64,000 nt of DNA, from contig SOJZ01000031.1 in NCBI GenBank assembly GCA_004376295.1, forward strand, positions 12,624-76,623, given 5' to 3'. Under the pieces are notes generated by a model. It saw only the letters and a program-made list of their open reading frames with translations, ran no database searches and was not told where the DNA came from. Shown piece by piece: positions 10,847-58,492 of the stretch (its first letter is position 1; each line of letters begins with the position of its first letter). Origin of the DNA: Candidatus Bathyarchaeota archaeon (GTDB taxonomy: Archaea; Thermoproteota; Bathyarchaeia; Bathyarchaeales; Bathyarchaeaceae). Position numbers and translations under genes: made by a program.

Positions 10847-13333
10847 TCAGGCTTCTTTCCTCATTTTATTCCCTAATATCTTCTTGTGTGCCAAACCGAG
10901 GTAGGCTGTTGTTGCTATGAGGATTATTGATGTTGCTATGAAGATGTACATTAGGTTTCGGGTAGTGCTGAGTTCATTTATCGCTTCTTGCCAATCTGAC
11001 CACAGTTTGTCATAGGATGATTGAAGGTTATTATAGCTGTCCAACAGTTCATGATGCCTTGAACTTAACTCGTTGTACTTTTCCAGCAATTCATAATACA
11101 GAACTCGGAAGTTTACAATTGTTGGATCGTACGGAACCATCAGCGGATAATTGTCTTGATTGTTTACATCGATAATGTATGGCGTGTCCCCTATTCCATC
11201 ACCACCAGTCTCATTCTGATAAGGACCACTATACTCATCAACGCCAGCATAGTCACTCCAATAGTTTCCGCCAGAAGGATAACCATCATCCCAATGAACG
11301 TTATGAGACTTATCTACCCGAGCTTGATAGTATCGGTAGTTTTCGATAAAGTTATTATGATATACTACACCATAGTTTGAACACATTAAAAAGATTCCTC
11401 CCTCATTATGTGAGATGTTGTTTTCTTTGATGTTTACACGATCTGAGTAGTACGAAAATATTCCGCGCTCATTGTATGAAAAGTTGCAGTGCTTCACCAT
11501 GGTTCCAGGCGAACATATTAAGGATATTGCATAAAAATTGTGGGTTGCTTCCACGTTCTCTATTAGAGTGTTTGGCGAAAATGCTATGAGTAAGCCGTTT
11601 CCGTTTCTCGATAGGGAAAGATTAGCTATTTGAACATCACTTGAATTTACAACTGCAAGGTATCCAACATTTGGAAAAGTCGCAGGATTAATAAAAAGGT
11701 TCTCCTCGTTGACCAAATAGTATACTGGCTTTCCATCTACAAGGTTGGAAGAATCTATGTCTTGAAGAAAATCACTAATAGACCAAGAACCCAAAATATG
11801 CAGATTATGCGAGTTGTTGAAGAGTATATTCCTTCGCAAGAAGTTTTGGCTGGATCCGCTTATAGTTAGTCCAAATTTATTTCCGTATGCTACGCAATCA
11901 GTTACTGTATTGCGTTTGCCTCTAAACAGCTGGATTCCGTCACCCCCATTCGTCACTGTAAGATTCGCTATCTTAACATCATCAGCCCAAACAAAGATTA
12001 CGGGTTCCCATACTGGAGAATACGCTACACCCACGATTACAGTAGTATTTTTATTCTCCCCAACAAGAGCAACCCTCTTATTCACTACCACATTTTCATA
12101 GTATGTTCCTGCTTCAATAAAGATTGTGTGGCCGTCTAGAGTTTCTGAGGCATTTATGGCTTCTTGAACTGCAGCATAGCCTAATCCTGTGTTGATGTTA
12201 TGTGCTGGAAGGGGGCTCCATGGATTCATAAGCGGGTATCGGTCTCGATTGTCTGCATGAATAACATATGGTGTATCGCCTAGTCCATCGTTTCCATGCT
12301 GGTCTTGGTTTGGACCACTGTTCTCATCCGAACCTGCATAGTCGCTCCAGTAGTTTCCACCAGAAGGGTAACCATAGTCCCAAGTGTTTATTGATCCTGA
12401 GTAGCTTCCTGCTTGTTTTGTGTTATCCAGAAAATTGTTGTGGTATATGCTGTTTGAGTTGGAATACCATAGTGCGATGCCGTCCCATTCATTCTGAATT
12501 AACGCATTTCCTGTGACTGTATTAGAGTTAGACCCGAATAATACTATACCATATCGGTGGTTTGAAGCTAGGTGGTTACCAATAATGTTGCTGTGGTTAG
12601 AGGCGTCCAACCGTATACCTGCCTCATTATTACAACTCAACATGTTTCCAACAATTTTGTTATGAGTGGACCATCCTACGCTAATGCCACAAAAACTGTT
12701 GTTATAGATTTCGTTATTATGAATCATGTTGCTGTTGGCATCACTCCCTATAACGACACCCACTTCATTGTTGAATAAGCTGTTTCCCTCTATGTGGTTG
12801 TCATTACTGAGGACTATGTCAATCCCTCTATAGTTGTTGAATACCAAGTTGTCAAAGACAATGGAGTTGCTGGAATAATACAAGAAGATGCCCATGTCAT
12901 TGTCTGATATGATATTGTCGTGAACTGTAACATTATTGCAACAACCTTCCCATTCACCCACCTTGATTCCATAAGTGATATGAGGGATATGATATCCATT
13001 CTGAATTGTTAACCCGCTAATGCTAACGTAGTCAGCGGTTACAGAGATAACAGTCCCGTTTCGGCTTCCGTCAATAATGGTGTTTTCCTTGTTTTCTCCA
13101 ATAAGCGATATTGACTTATTTACAACTATATGTTCATAGTATGTTCCATTTCTCACAGAAACAGTGTCTCCTAGATTCGCTGCGTTTATGGCTTCTTGTA
13201 TCGTTGGATAGTCGTCAGGAACTATTATTGTTCTAGGCTCTGCTTTAACTGGTTGAATATCAAATGCCAACGCTAACATACCAATAAAAAGTAGCGTAAG
13301 CATTATTCCAGAAACTTTCCACGCTTTTTTCAT
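10847..13333 (-). CDS. Secreted, C-terminally anchored surface protein with two right-handed beta-helix (NosD/PbH1-like) modules
   Basis: 828 aa with signal peptide. Internal duplication: DYPTIQEAINAANLGDTVSVRNGTYYEHIVVNKSISLIGENKENTIIDG vs GYAAVQEAINASETLDGHTIFIEAGTYYENVVVNKRVALVGENKNTTVIVG, and WDYGYPSGGNYWSDYAGSDENSGP...GDTPY vs WDDGYPSGGNYWSDYAGVDEYSGP...GDTPY. Coiled-coil plus TM tail. Confidence 0.8.
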   Translation of the reverse strand: MKKAWKVSGIMLTLLFIGMLALAFDIQPVKAEPRTIIVPDDYPTIQEAINAANLGDTVSVRNGTYYEHIVVNKSISLIGENKENTIIDGSRNGTVISVTADYVSISGLTIQNGYHIPHITYGIKVGEWEGCCNNVTVHDNIISDNDMGIFLYYSSNSIVFDNLVFNNYRGIDIVLSNDNHIEGNSLFNNEVGVVIGSDANSNMIHNNEIYNNSFCGISVGWSTHNKIVGNMLSCNNEAGIRLDASNHSNIIGNHLASNHRYGIVLFGSNSNTVTGNALIQNEWDGIALWYSNSNSIYHNNFLDNTKQAGSYSGSINTWDYGYPSGGNYWSDYAGSDENSGPNQDQHGNDGLGDTPYVIHADNRDRYPLMNPWSPLPAHNINTGLGYAAVQEAINASETLDGHTIFIEAGTYYENVVVNKRVALVGENKNTTVIVGVAYSPVWEPVIFVWADDVKIANLTVTNGGDGIQLFRGKRNTVTDCVAYGNKFGLTISGSSQNFLRRNILFNNSHNLHILGSWSISDFLQDIDSSNLVDGKPVYYLVNEENLFINPATFPNVGYLAVVNSSDVQIANLSLSRNGNGLLIAFSPNTLIENVEATHNFYAISLICSPGTMVKHCNFSYNERGIFSYYSDRVNIKENNISHNEGGIFLMCSNYGVVYHNNFIENYRYYQARVDKSHNVHWDDGYPSGGNYWSDYAGVDEYSGPYQNETGGDGIGDTPYIIDVNNQDNYPLMVPYDPTIVNFRVLYYELLEKYNELSSRHHELLDSYNNLQSSYDKLWSDWQEAINELSTTRNLMYIFIATSIILIATTAYLGLAHKKILGNKMRKEA

Positions 13334-53469: not shown

Positions 53470-53535
53470 AACGGTTACCTTTGCATGCATGCATAAAGGG
53501 TTTAACATAGATCGTGGACATTTTAACATTGTTTC
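53470..53535 (+). repeat. Intergenic repeat carrying an (ATGC)n core (copy 2)
   Basis: aacggttacctttgcatgcatgcataaagggtttaacatagatcgtggacattttaacatt. Homologous to 34079-34135. Confidence 0.7.
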
Positions 53536-53693: not shown

Positions 53694-54503
53694 TTGAATG
53701 AAAAACAGTTTATGGTAGGCGCTTTGATTGGTTTAATGCTATTAGCACTAGCATTGGCTCCGTTGTCTGGTCAGGAAGGTGGTGGATATAACCCTTGGGC
53801 AGATTTGGATGGTGATGGAAACATAGATGCTGACGACTTGTATCTTCTGGCAAATGCGTATGGTACTTCAGGAGAACCCCTCAATCTTCCTATGGCTTTG
53901 GAATATGACAGCGGATGGGTTAACATCATCGACAAACTAGGTCAGCATTTCAACATAACCCACAACCTGAACAGCTCGAACACAATCGTGCAGATTAGAG
54001 GAAAAACAACATTGGCAGGCCCAGCCCATCGGAGACATTTCGATGGAACAGGCTACACAGCGGGATGGAACCAAACATACGGAGGAGCAAACGCCGACCA
54101 TGCTCGTTCCGTGATTCAGACAGCTGATGGAGGATACGCAATAGCAGGCTACACCTACTCGTATGGTGCTGGTGGTTGGGATTCCTGGCTGGTTAAGATT
54201 GACTCTGCTGGTAACATGCAGTGGAACCAAACATACGGAGGAACATTCGATGAAGACACCTGGTCCATGGTTCAGACGAGCGATGGTGGATACGCGTTGG
54301 CTGGCTCCACCCATTCCTATACTGCTGGTGGCTTGGATTTCTGGCTGGTTAAGACGGATGCGTTCGGATTAACAGAGGCTTTCGAGTTGGGATTAGCTAT
54401 TACGGGTCGGACAGCGGACACTTTAGAACTGTATAAGGGCGCAATCGACCCCTACTGGAACTATGTGCGCATCAGGATATGGGTAGCCAAAGAAACCCCA
54501 TAA
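53694..54503 (+). CDS. Secreted protein with dockerin/EF-hand-like DxDxDG motif and tandem ~47-aa beta-propeller-like repeats
   Basis: 269 aa; signal peptide; ADLDGDGNIDADDLYLLANAYG. Repeats WNQTYGG...DGGYA.AG.T.SY.AGG.D.WLVK.D x2. Confidence 0.65.
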   Translation: MNEKQFMVGALIGLMLLALALAPLSGQEGGGYNPWADLDGDGNIDADDLYLLANAYGTSGEPLNLPMALEYDSGWVNIIDKLGQHFNITHNLNSSNTIVQIRGKTTLAGPAHRRHFDGTGYTAGWNQTYGGANADHARSVIQTADGGYAIAGYTYSYGAGGWDSWLVKIDSAGNMQWNQTYGGTFDEDTWSMVQTSDGGYALAGSTHSYTAGGLDFWLVKTDAFGLTEAFELGLAITGRTADTLELYKGAIDPYWNYVRIRIWVAKETP

Positions 54504-54859
54504 CCACAATGCATGCGTGTGCGCGCAAATGATAGGCTTCAGCAGCTTTGGGAAGAGACCTCTTCCAAGAGTATGTAGGTAGAAATCTGATTGCTCACTG
54601 GCAGCCCTATTTCAAAGCCCCTCTTCATTTTCCGGTTGTTACAGCTAACTCTCTTAAAGAATGTTCAAACCTGGAATGCATGCATGACAGCAGAACATTA
54701 ACGATAACTGAAGTATGGTCGGTATACATTCTAAAAGGGCTGGTGTGCTGGACGTAACCCGCCTATAGGGCATTATAGAATTATGCTCTATCTCTCTTAC
54801 TTCGTTTAGTTCTTTCATTTTCTCATCTCGCATGTAGGCTTATAGGTGGTGTTTTATTT

Positions 54860-55060
54860 TTGGGTTTGCTTGTTTTAGGTCTTTTTTTCATGCATGCCTG
54901 TCATTGTGGGTGGGGGAAGGGGTACAAGGGGAAACTGCGCTTCGGGGGGTTTCCCCCTGTTCCTATGGCTTCGGGTGGGTGTGGCAATATGAATAGCCGA
55001 GCGACCAGCTCGGCTGGTATCATGCCCTCAATTCCAAGTAAAAGGTATAGCAAACACTAG
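54860..55060 (+). CDS. Small Gly/Cys-rich peptide with hydrophobic N-terminus (speculative)
   Basis: 66 aa. TTG start preceded by ATAGGTGGTGTTTT, the same string that precedes 55108..55290. Confidence 0.25.
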   Translation: MGLLVLGLFFMHACHCGWGKGYKGKLRFGGFPPVPMASGGCGNMNSRATSSAGIMPSIPSKRYSKH

Positions 55061-55107
55061 AATAGGTGATATCCATATATACGAAACAAAAATAGGTGGT
55101 GTTTTTT

Positions 55108-55290
55108 ATGAAGGAAAAAGATGAGCATAGTCCTGTCGTGCTGAAGTTGGTTTCGAAAGGGAAGAGCGGAGTTCAGATCTCAAGTGTTCCCATGAAGAAG
55201 TTAAAGGCTCTAGAAGAGTGGCATCAGAAGAACTATCATCCCTGCAAATGGCGAATAAGCAAGGATGGGAAAAACCTCTTACTGATGTAA
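55108..55290 (+). CDS. Small hypothetical protein
   Basis: 60 aa from ATG 55108 (MKEKDEHSPVVLK...); AGGTGGTG lies 8 nt upstream. Confidence 0.3.
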   Translation: MKEKDEHSPVVLKLVSKGKSGVQISSVPMKKLKALEEWHQKNYHPCKWRISKDGKNLLLM

Positions 55291-55593
55291 GGCATGCATG
55301 TATGTGATGTGCATTCATCTATTCTTTAACCATTGTGCAACTCTTTTTAGATGTGGAATTGCACTTTGGTCGATTATTGGAACTTCTCTTGCACCCATCT
55401 TTTTGAGGGATTGATATTTAGCCATTTGTGAATAGATAACTGCATGCATGCATACCATTATTCAATCTTATACCTCTAAGTTTGAATGGTAGTTTCATAG
55501 CAAAATACGTATAAATTCAAGGGATTTCTGCATGTATACATGCAAAAAAAAGTAATATATAGCAGACGTAAAGACAATTATGGGGTTAATAGA

Positions 55594-56076
55594 ATGCCAT
55601 TTACAGTTTTTGTAAGTCATAGCACTAAGGATATGGACATAGTCAATGAACTTGCAAAATGGTTGGAGTTAAATGGAGTTGTTGCTCATGTAGCTCAATT
55701 ACAGACAGAAGCAGGAAAACCTTTGGCTGAAACGATTTCAGAGGGACTGGAGTCAAGCAATTGTGTTCTCGCGATTTTAACGAAAGATGGCGCAAGGTCA
55801 AAGTGGGTCAATCAAGAAATTGGATATGCAAAGCGAGCTGGAAAAATGGTTGTGCCAATAGTAGAAGAAGGGGTAAGGGTAAAAGGGTTCCTTGAAAGTT
55901 TGGAATATATCCCTTTCGACAGACGTAATCCGTATGACGCTGTGACTCGAGCTGTGGAATATCTCAGAACGCTTGCTGTCAGAAAGGAGGAAGAAGAAAG
56001 AGCAAGAGCTATCTTTGGAGGATTACTTTTTCTCTTTGGTCTTCTAGCCCTTGCAGCTGTAGCTTCTGGAGAGTGA
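55594..56076 (+). CDS. TIR-domain protein with C-terminal transmembrane anchor
   Basis: Start moved to ATG 55594 (MPFTVFVSHSTKDMDIV...). SKWVNQEIGYA contains the conserved TIR Glu. Tail IFGGLLFLFGLLALAAVASGE. Confidence 0.8.
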   Translation: MPFTVFVSHSTKDMDIVNELAKWLELNGVVAHVAQLQTEAGKPLAETISEGLESSNCVLAILTKDGARSKWVNQEIGYAKRAGKMVVPIVEEGVRVKGFLESLEYIPFDRRNPYDAVTRAVEYLRTLAVRKEEEERARAIFGGLLFLFGLLALAAVASGE

Positions 56077-56182
56077 GATAACGTCTATCAAGTTAGCTTG
56101 GGAGTTCCTGAAAAGAGCTCTGAGGTGCCTAGAGGAAGCTAAAAGGCATTTTGACAATCCAAGCCATGTCGTAGATTATCCT

Positions 56183-56524
56183 TTGTGTATAACCCGAGCT
56201 CATGAATGCGTTGAATTTTCTCTAAAGGCAGCATTGTTATTGGTAGGAAGAAGACTTCCTCACACTCATGACTTAAGTGATGTTCTAACAGGAGCAATTA
56301 AGAAATTTCCAGAGTGGTTCAAAGAAAAGGTTCCTTCGTTTGCAGTTCATTCCAAGGTTATGAACGTCATTAAAGTCTATGCAACGTACGGCTACGAACC
56401 TACGAGTACACCTCCAAAAGAGCTTTTCAAGGAACACTACGCAAATATGTGCGTTAAGAATGCGGAAGACGTTTGGTCTAATTGCCATCGTCTTTACCAT
56501 GAGATACAATCGCTAAAACCGTAA
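56183..56524 (+). CDS. HEPN-domain protein (annotated start truncates the domain)
   Basis: Rx4H motif GRRLPHTHDL. The frame is open from 56063 and encodes a plausible first HEPN helix (ITSIKLAWEFLKRALRCLEEAKRHFD), but has no ATG/GTG/TTG before 56183. Confidence 0.7.
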   Translation: MCITRAHECVEFSLKAALLLVGRRLPHTHDLSDVLTGAIKKFPEWFKEKVPSFAVHSKVMNVIKVYATYGYEPTSTPPKELFKEHYANMCVKNAEDVWSNCHRLYHEIQSLKP

Positions 56525-56573
56525 TGCATGCATGCATTTTATAGACATGTAAAACTATCTTGAGGCTGTATGC

Positions 56574-57238: not shown

Positions 57239-58492
57239 TCATTTGGTTTTCGTACGTTCTTTTAGCTTCTTGAATTTCTTCTTGCTTCCTTCCAAAGTTT
57301 CAAAGTGCTCTTCTACCAATGCCTTCAAGGGTGCACGCATGCGGTCGGTAAGACCGTCGATGATGAAGTCTAAGGTTCTTTTGAGGTTTTCTGGGGCATC
57401 ATCGCTGTTCACAAGCTCTACTAAAGGCTGTAATTTAGCCATTTTTCCCTCCAAGACGTTAATCTCTTTGTCTCTCTCTTTCAATTGCTCTCTCAATTCC
57501 TCTATAACCTCTTCTGTTTCTGTCGGTGTAGCGGTTTCAAGCCTTAAGAATGGCATAGCCTTCTCAGCATACAGTTTGCGGTGGAACTCTGGGTCTTTAG
57601 GACGATAGTGCTCGTCTACGCCTTCTCTGACTATATGCCCCATCCAGAATTGCACGTATTCAAATCCTGCAGGGGTGGCGTATTTTCTGAAGAACTTGCG
57701 TAGATTGTAGAGTCTAACCTCGGCAGGTTTGTGATACTGACGTTTCTTAATTTTCATGACTTTGTGTCTCTCAAGTTTGTGGATGATTAAACGGAAAGTC
57801 TTACTGACGCTTTTAGGAGAGAAACATCTGTTTTCGCTGTGGTGCGTGAAAAGGTAATCGCTAGGTTTTATATGCGGTCTAGTTTTGAGATAGAGTTTAA
57901 GGAATCTTACGGTTTCAGGCCCTGCAAAAGTGAAGTAGTCGCGGTATTGCCCTTTAGCTATCTCTGCTGGCACGTTGACCTTTAAAGGGATAATGTCTGC
58001 TTCAAAATCTTTTTGAATATGCTCGTAACGGAGGCTATTAAGCGTGCATGGTCTTAGTCCGCTTTGAGCCATCATACAGAAATACGCTTTGTCTCTAACT
58101 TTGGCGTGAGCTAAGATTTGTGCTACTTCTTCTTTAGTGATGTCGCGGTTGTGGTATACGATTCGAAGCTTTCCTACAGGCACGTAGCCTAATGGCAAAT
58201 CATTATGCTTGAAGAAACTTCTTATCGCCCCTATGTAACTGGCAATTGACGCTGAAGTACGTTCTCCATTATCCAAATACGATATGAAAGCTCGAAGATA
58301 CCGTGCATACTTTCTTCGGAATTCACGGTCAGTCATAGCATCGTATTCTTCTAGAATCTGTTGGGGGGTTTTTTCTATAAAATCGCTAAAAATCTGTAAT
58401 AGTCTTCGGTAATTTTTCTCGGTGTGTACGCTTTTAGAATGACTATATTGCACGCTGGATATCCAACTATCTACCACGTTGAATTTATCCAT
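57239..58492 (-). mobile_element. Tyrosine recombinase / integrase with C-terminal coiled-coil extension
   Basis: 417 aa; catalytic-type residues in GLRPCTL, YNLRKFFRKY, WMGH, DEHYRP. No tRNA seen nearby. Confidence 0.82.

Follow-up and report, generated by a model that had tools for sequence, protein, structure and literature searches.

HEPN proteins of the Pfam family PF05168 have been listed either with minimal nucleotidyltransferase (MNT) partners or as standalone genes, and TIR is mentioned in the same survey only as a fusion in the DUF4145 HEPN family (Anantharaman et al. 2013, PMC3710099). A literature search found no description of a gene pair in which a TIR protein with a membrane helix (TIR-TM) accompanies a HEPN protein. 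Such a pair is present in a Candidatus Bathyarchaeota metagenome-assembled genome (assembly GCA_004376295.1, contig SOJZ01000031.1), in the stretch of 64,000 nt (contig positions 12,624 to 76,623) that we analysed and call the window. Its HEPN open reading frame (ORF) has no canonical start codon near the expected position. We consider it fairly likely that TIR and HEPN are two separate, co-transcribed genes and that full-length HEPN is translated from a working near-cognate AUA start. Among the explanations listed in the first-pass annotation of this locus, a non-canonical start fits the data best. Coordinates without a locus label are window positions throughout, and L and P numbers denote other loci and proteins in our dataset.

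The TIR ORF ends in ...LALAAVASGE at a TGA stop (56074-56076, forward strand). The HEPN frame, shifted by +1 relative to TIR, is closed by a TAG at 56060-56062 and then open from 56063 to the TAA at 56522-56524, and the first ATG, GTG or TTG in its ORF listing is the TTG at 56183. The first-pass annotation had read the sequence in the same way, and all of these statements hold. It had also proposed that HEPN begins inside the end of TIR. The open frame does reach back that far; the position at which orthologues start, however, corresponds to 56078, one base past the TIR stop, so that a coding overlap is not needed. Public gene calls disagree on this gene. GenBank records a 178-aa TIR protein from an ATG at 55540 (TET19315.1) and a 152-aa HEPN protein (TET19316.1), whereas the Joint Genome Institute (JGI) call for HEPN (P0005) starts even later than TTG 56183 and gives 94 aa.

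We next compared the junctions of related loci. DNA was recovered for 11 distinct TIR-HEPN loci in which HEPN is intact. TIR and HEPN are separate genes in every one of them, and in 8 of the 11 HEPN has its own ATG or GTG, 1-7 nt past the TIR stop. Two arrangements can be distinguished. In type A the stop is followed by one nucleotide and then by ATG-ACN-TCN (L171, L011, L002 and L172; L014 has GTG), and in type B it is followed by 4-5 nt and an ATG or GTG one codon further downstream (L003, L174, L169 and L001). The window junction, TGA-g-ATA-ACG-TCT, has the spacing and the second and third codons of type A, with ATA in place of ATG. ATA stands at this place in two further lineages from samples of different origin: L006/L007 read TAA-c-ATA-ACC-TCC followed by an intact 149-aa HEPN ORF (the gene call, P0006, begins 29 codons late), and L175/L176/L177, from three samples, read TAA-a/g-ATA-ACG-TCT followed by an intact ORF of 149 aa that had not been called as a gene. 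ATA is kept in four distinct sequences while the adjoining spacer base changes (g, a, g, c). ATA also encodes the invariant internal isoleucine I38 of HEPN, which indicates that the genetic code is standard. Purine runs resembling a Shine-Dalgarno (SD) sequence, of the GGAGG or GGGGA type, lie at the same site in all orthologous junctions. As another candidate for a shared start we considered ACG 56081, which aligns with the ATG or GTG of L003, L169, L174 and L001, but rejected because L006 has ACC there.

These comparisons bear directly on three other explanations. The first is a single TIR-TM-HEPN polypeptide made by read-through or by a programmed +1 frameshift close to the TIR stop; a +1 frameshift fusion was among the options in the first-pass annotation. 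The HEPN frame is +1 relative to TIR and already open 14 nt before the TIR stop, and the SD-like run before UGA loosely resembles the prfB frameshift site. However, the orthologues are separate genes, most of whose HEPNs have their own ATG or GTG; the frame offset, +1 elsewhere, is +2 in L001; the TIR stops differ between loci (TGA, TAA and TAG) and the spacers range from 1 to 7 nt. The L001 offset, the variable stops and the separate genes leave a conserved frameshift fusion unsupported. In addition, there is no slippery codon, a tRNA-Glu on GAG cannot re-pair on AGU, and HEPN, if fused downstream of the C-terminal membrane helix, would have its RNase domain on the wrong side of the membrane. 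We therefore regard this explanation as extremely improbable.

Equally slight is the chance that the ATA reflects a sequencing or assembly error, be it a base substitution or an indel. The data are metagenomic, but an independent assembly from a JGI sample (L005) is identical to the window over both genes, junction included, and the ATA junction recurs in the two other lineages on five further contigs. The assembly indel suspected around the junction in the first-pass annotation is thus not required. One more sequence close to the window is a Logan contig (P0055), whose TIR falls within the same cluster of at least 90% identity as the window TIR.

A third explanation takes the start implied by the public annotation, CTG 56066, which gives a 152-aa product beginning MESEITSIKL... 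and an 11-nt overlap with TIR. CTG is itself a near-cognate codon, and it occupies the start position in three MNT-paired relatives described below. Nevertheless, this CTG is missing in the other two ATA lineages, where no in-frame near-cognate codon is found between the upstream stop and ATA (read from the sequences of L175 and L006), and no orthologue has residues at the extra positions. Neither is there an SD-like run before it, the GGAGAG falling between CTG and ATA. It is because of this missing run and the absence from the other ATA lineages that we rank CTG 56066 below ATA and hold it to be an improbable start.

The predicted protein also points to a start upstream of the TTG. The first-pass annotation had suggested that the peptide preceding TTG 56183 is the first helix of the HEPN domain and that initiation at the TTG would truncate the fold, and both suggestions were borne out. 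In the long translation, PF05168 aligns over profile positions 2-113 with residues 13-140 (53 bits, cut-off 22), while a product initiated at the TTG is matched over positions 27-113 only (37 bits). In the AlphaFold model of the 148-aa protein (pLDDT 92.6), helix 1 covers residues 2-26 and helix 2 residues 34-55, the TTG falling within the latter. The model forms the four-helix up-down bundle of HEPN domains: among the top Foldseek matches are the HEPN structures 2hsb, 1wol and 1ufb (AF_0298, ST0689 and TT1696) as well as the HEPN domain of sacsin, with TM-scores of 0.6-0.8. These relatives were found by the fold search, the sequence having no significant match in the PDB. No PADLOC or NCBIfam model matched the window HEPN, and no relative was found on viral contigs.

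Homologues are 144-151 aa long, and L11, A14, L18 and A21 of helix 1 are invariant in the TIR-paired alignment and are the commonest residues in MNT-paired relatives (65%, 97%, 78% and 82%, respectively). The Y-G-x-E motif is present in 9 of 9 TIR-side sequences and nearly universal in 110 MNT-side sequences (Y 97%, G 98%, E 98%). R59-x4-H64 of the window is a candidate for the Rx4-6H motif: H64-D65 is invariant and the Arg column is not fixed; L025, L026 and the MNT-paired relatives have [KR]-x-H-D instead. Initiation at TTG 56183, yielding a 113-aa HEPN that lacks helix 1, seems very unlikely to us. It would use the first canonical start in the frame, and the short form still reaches 37 bits against Pfam, but helix 1 is an element of the bundle both in the model and in every homologue and carries the four conserved residues just named, three lineages without an earlier start keep the 35 codons upstream of the TTG open and conserved, and no SD-like run precedes the TTG. 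Nor do homologues begin at its equivalent: the eight full-length ones start with Met 6-7 residues before the position of Trp8.

The most serious alternative is that the gene has recently lost its start, an ATG-to-ATA change (G to A) having silenced a toxic HEPN here and, by separate events, in the other ATA lineages; the ORF would then look intact only because little time has passed since. G-to-A changes are frequent, decay of HEPN is known in this clade, and the JGI callers produced truncated HEPN genes or none. To weigh this possibility we relied on whole-gene dN/dS (the ratio of nonsynonymous to synonymous substitution rates), lineage-specific changes and invariant columns; in the 34 N-terminal codons alone, synonymous sites are saturated. 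Among the three ATA lineages dN/dS is 0.10-0.11 at dS of 1.0-1.5, and pairs whose starts are canonical give equal values. Neither the window nor L006 shows an excess of lineage-specific amino-acid changes, and both keep all 30 columns found invariant in the other sequences. In a neutral simulation, 19% of runs retained a stop-free ORF at 0.1 substitutions per site, as against 0.8% at 0.5. Thus, the HEPN genes with ATA are under purifying selection and show neither rate acceleration nor loss of an invariant residue, and recent start loss would have to explain how three lineages acquired an identical lesion and no other, with ATA constant in four sequences in spite of a changing spacer base.

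Phylogeny bears on the question as well. In a neighbor-joining (NJ) tree built from TIR and HEPN together, a clade (72% bootstrap) unites the eight sequences closest to the window, and the ATA lineages are not mutual sisters. Fitch parsimony over 500 bootstrap trees assigned A to the third base of the first codon in the crown-clade ancestor (giving ATA) in 66% of trees and G (ATG) in 2%, and in 94% of trees a start at the second codon was gained by C-to-T three separate times. Under that reading, ATA would have persisted during synonymous saturation and several lineages would later have regained a canonical start.

Several observations do weigh against an ancestral, functional AUA. Nodes within the crown clade are weakly resolved, with bootstrap values of 27-57% for several of them, which leaves room for three independent recent ATG-to-ATA losses. 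When the start is treated as a binary trait and steps are counted by hand on the NJ tree, independent losses need 3 steps and a single loss with reversions needs 4, a count slightly in favour of the former. The family does decay, L008, L014, L171 and L173 carrying frameshifts or deletions. GenBank puts the HEPN start at CTG 56066. Finally, AUA starts are to our knowledge undocumented in archaea, and our literature search found no description of one.

Other members of the family are decayed. L008/L010 are among them, with TIR lost, the HEPN N-terminus truncated and a C-terminal frameshift in L008; the HEPN genes of L014 and L171 are frameshifted; and in L173 TIR is 5'-truncated and HEPN has internal deletions. 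True decay in this clade looks unlike the ATA lineages. The decaying gene considered in the first-pass annotation thus survives as a rival, but three otherwise intact ATA lineages under purifying selection count against it, as does the preference of nucleotide parsimony for an ancestral ATA, and we judge it unlikely.

If AUA initiation is accepted as the better reading, translation of HEPN would begin at 56078 and give 148 aa. The GGAGAG run 4 nt before the AUA and the TIR stop 1 nt upstream suggest that ribosomes finishing TIR probably drive or help HEPN initiation by termination-reinitiation coupling. Huber et al. showed for Haloferax and E. coli that efficient reinitiation requires an overlap or a very short spacer, and that closely spaced coupled gene pairs are enriched for subunits of complexes (PMC10666635). 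In E. coli, initiation at AUA reaches ~1-2% of that at AUG (bioRxiv 10.1101/063800). Initiation at the HEPN AUA is probably weak as well, and a weak start might keep HEPN, the presumed toxin, at a lower level than its TIR partner.

Near-cognate starts may not be restricted to this clade. Among 135 distinct HEPN loci, only the ATA clade and three MNT-paired genes combined an intact gene with the lack of a canonical start around the expected position. In the latter (L110 2986, L079 1810 and L123 2992) CTGA replaces the usual ATGA overlap, so that HEPN starts at CTG and MNT stops at TGA; each carries a strong SD and an intact ORF (141-148 aa). They come from other archaeal phyla: L110 is a Freyarchaeota chromosome, and L079 and L123 are from Brockarchaeota. 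Near-cognate starts thus recur in these coupled genes.

The TIR partner matches TIR_2 well above the cut-off of 28 bits, and its AlphaFold model (pLDDT 85.5) has as top Foldseek matches the TIR NADases SARM1, Cat1, SpbK, SPARTA and AbTir (E ~1e-5). In PDB profile alignments E75 lines up with the glutamates of AbTir 'WTNYE' and Cat1 'WCWDE', which we take to be the catalytic residues. Residues 139-157, the putative membrane anchor, are part of a long helix (113-158), and the best 19-residue Kyte-Doolittle window of this C-terminal helix scores 2.5. As for the TIR start, both GenBank and JGI place it at ATG 55540, whereas orthologous TIRs begin with MxFxVF(V/I/L)SHS, equivalent to 55594. Since most orthologues start at the equivalent of ATG 55594, the 18-residue extension (55540-55593) is probably not real. 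Coordinates of both genes and their features are collected in Table 1.

Table 1. Features of the TIR-TM/HEPN pair and its junction (window positions)
Feature	Position	Strand	Remarks
TIR-TM gene	55594..56076	+	160 aa plus TGA; Pfam TIR_2 3e-19, 70 bits
Glu75 codon, W-V-N-Q-E motif	55816..55818	+	presumed catalytic Glu of TIR; invariant in 32 homologues
Hydrophobic C-terminal helix of TIR, residues 139-157	56008..56064	+	predicted membrane anchor
CTG, start implied by GenBank TET19316.1	56066..56068	+	152 aa, MESEITS...; not conserved
SD-like GGAGAG	56068..56073	+	within last TIR codons, 4 nt before ATA; read from sequence
TIR stop codon TGA	56074..56076	+	read from sequence
ATA, proposed HEPN start	56078..56080	+	exactly where type-A orthologues have ATG/GTG; 1 nt past TGA
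HEPN gene	56078..56524	+	148 aa plus TAA; Pfam HEPN 4.8e-14
HEPN helix 1, residues 2-26	56081..56155	+	Pfam and AlphaFold; upstream of first canonical start
TTG, first canonical start in frame	56183..56185	+	residue 36, within helix 2
R59-L-P-H-T-H64	56252..56269	+	fits Rx4H pattern; H64, D65 invariant
Y104-G105-Y106-E107	56387..56398	+	Y-G-x-E motif, kept in TIR-paired and MNT-paired relatives

The surroundings of the pair have several features of their own. A palindromic octamer, TGCATGCA, occurs in 24 copies between 18840 and 59161 (0.9 expected), 19 of them outside long ORFs, and a 14-mer, ATGCATGCATGCAT, has 19 near-matches against 0.26 expected. Extended copies lie at 53482-53504, 54667-54686, 55438-55454 and 56514-56538, and some share a longer form, AAACCnnnAATGCATGCATGCA. 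Copies flank the TIR-HEPN operon, ~140 nt before TIR begins and immediately past the HEPN stop; the element may act as a regulator site, mark a terminator or boundary, or form a tract prone to Z-DNA. The window and L005 (1780-1991) differ at 24 positions, all in a 212-bp patch (55019-55230), and at none elsewhere in 6.3 kb. Thirteen of these differences fall in a small ORF (55096-55290, 64 aa; no significant Pfam match), and 12 of the 13 are synonymous, which marks it as a real gene under purifying selection within a recombination-like tract.

Two genes downstream of the operon, and convergent with it, lies a XerA-like tyrosine recombinase of 417 aa (57239-58492, reverse strand) with an unmatched C-terminal extension of ~170 residues. 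A tRNA scan of 40-64 kb found none, and hence no obvious integration site for this recombinase; there is no clear flanking direct repeat, and no Rfam match anywhere in the window. Upstream, a 269-aa ORF (53694-54503) with a hydrophobic N-terminal segment and a weak dockerin/EF-hand-like match contains a 133-nt direct repeat (54066-54354; 76% identical, 156-nt spacing). Related loci have among their neighbours Cas1, extra TIR genes, a YaaC-like gene and a type IIG-like methyltransferase/endonuclease with Mrr, in defence-island-like stretches (L006 3026-3358 and 4605-5663; L002 2237-2749; L172 2329-3171; L008 1-3081).

What might such a pair do? One may imagine that AUA has been selected and long maintained, that it works only through reinitiation and thereby fixes a low HEPN:TIR ratio, and that TIR is an enzymatic antitoxin holding the HEPN RNase inactive at the membrane; we offer this only as a long shot. 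By analogy with AMPylation of HepT by MntA, TIR might then ADP-ribosylate the conserved Tyr104 of HEPN. If TIR does act as an antitoxin, the pair would represent a new TIR-based type of toxin-antitoxin or abortive-infection system in archaea. In any case it is a compact two-gene candidate defence system without an entry in PADLOC 2.0. There is also a lesson for annotation: HEPN was missed in L175-177, cut to 94 aa at JGI and rescued at NCBI by an unconserved CTG. Since gene callers miss or truncate such genes, the number of toxin genes with near-cognate starts in archaeal genomes is probably underestimated.

The proposed start has its closest parallel in E. coli infC and pcnB, which have near-cognate AUU starts and low or autoregulated expression. 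In those genes, as here, the codon departs from AUG by one base, is otherwise a normal SD-preceded start and is kept across relatives; the proposed window start differs in being AUA, in an archaeal host and 1 nt past an upstream stop. The junction as a whole resembles those of termination-reinitiation pairs (Huber et al. 2019, 2023; PMC6728339, PMC10666635), which are likewise co-directional, with junctions of -4 to a few nt and an SD inside the upstream gene, but have canonical starts in the cases covered there. If AUA does initiate HEPN, archaea would offer a natural instance of non-canonical initiation that has persisted in evolution and is tied to termination-reinitiation.

Considering TIR, the comparison is with Thoeris ThsB-type proteins and other NADase TIRs (AbTir, Cat1, SpbK, SPARTA TIR-APAZ and SARM1), with which the window protein shares the TIR_2 fold and the conserved glutamate of W-x-x-x-E. 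Its matches to PADLOC ThsB models are weak (1e-9), and all matches to models of named systems lie far below their cut-offs. The pair differs from Thoeris in having no ThsA (SIR2, SLOG or Macro) partner, no ThsA-like gene being found among the five scanned window proteins or the Pfam-annotated neighbours of related loci. It also differs from these TIRs in that its TIR carries a C-terminal membrane anchor and is paired with a minimal HEPN.

The closest relationship is with MNT-HEPN modules. The first-pass annotation had stated that HEPN is usually paired with MNT, and this is so for the present family: of 130 distinct upstream neighbours of HEPN relatives, NTP_transf_2 (MNT) is present in 119 and TIR_2 in 9. 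These numbers mark the pair as a TIR-for-MNT variant of the MNT-HEPN module. The HEPN of the TIR pair belongs to the same subfamily as its MNT-paired relatives, is 30-40% identical to them and shares with them E43, E46, L49, K50, H64, D65, P78, W80, F81, Y104, G105 and E107; in both, the genes are co-directional, the 5' partner and the 3' HEPN meet at a very short or overlapping junction, and the context is that of a defence island. The differences lie in the junction, mostly a 4-nt overlap (ATGA) in MNT-HEPN and a 1-7 nt spacer in TIR-paired loci (1 nt in the window), in the ATA start of three TIR-paired lineages, and in the 5' partner, a tail-anchored TIR that matches TIR_2 and not NTP_transf_2. 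Most simply, then, the pair would be an MNT-HEPN variant, probably derived from that toxin-antitoxin family, in which a membrane-bound TIR enzyme sits in the place of MNT. Such a swap beside HEPNs of one subfamily suggests that nucleotide-using enzymes can replace one another as partners of HEPN.

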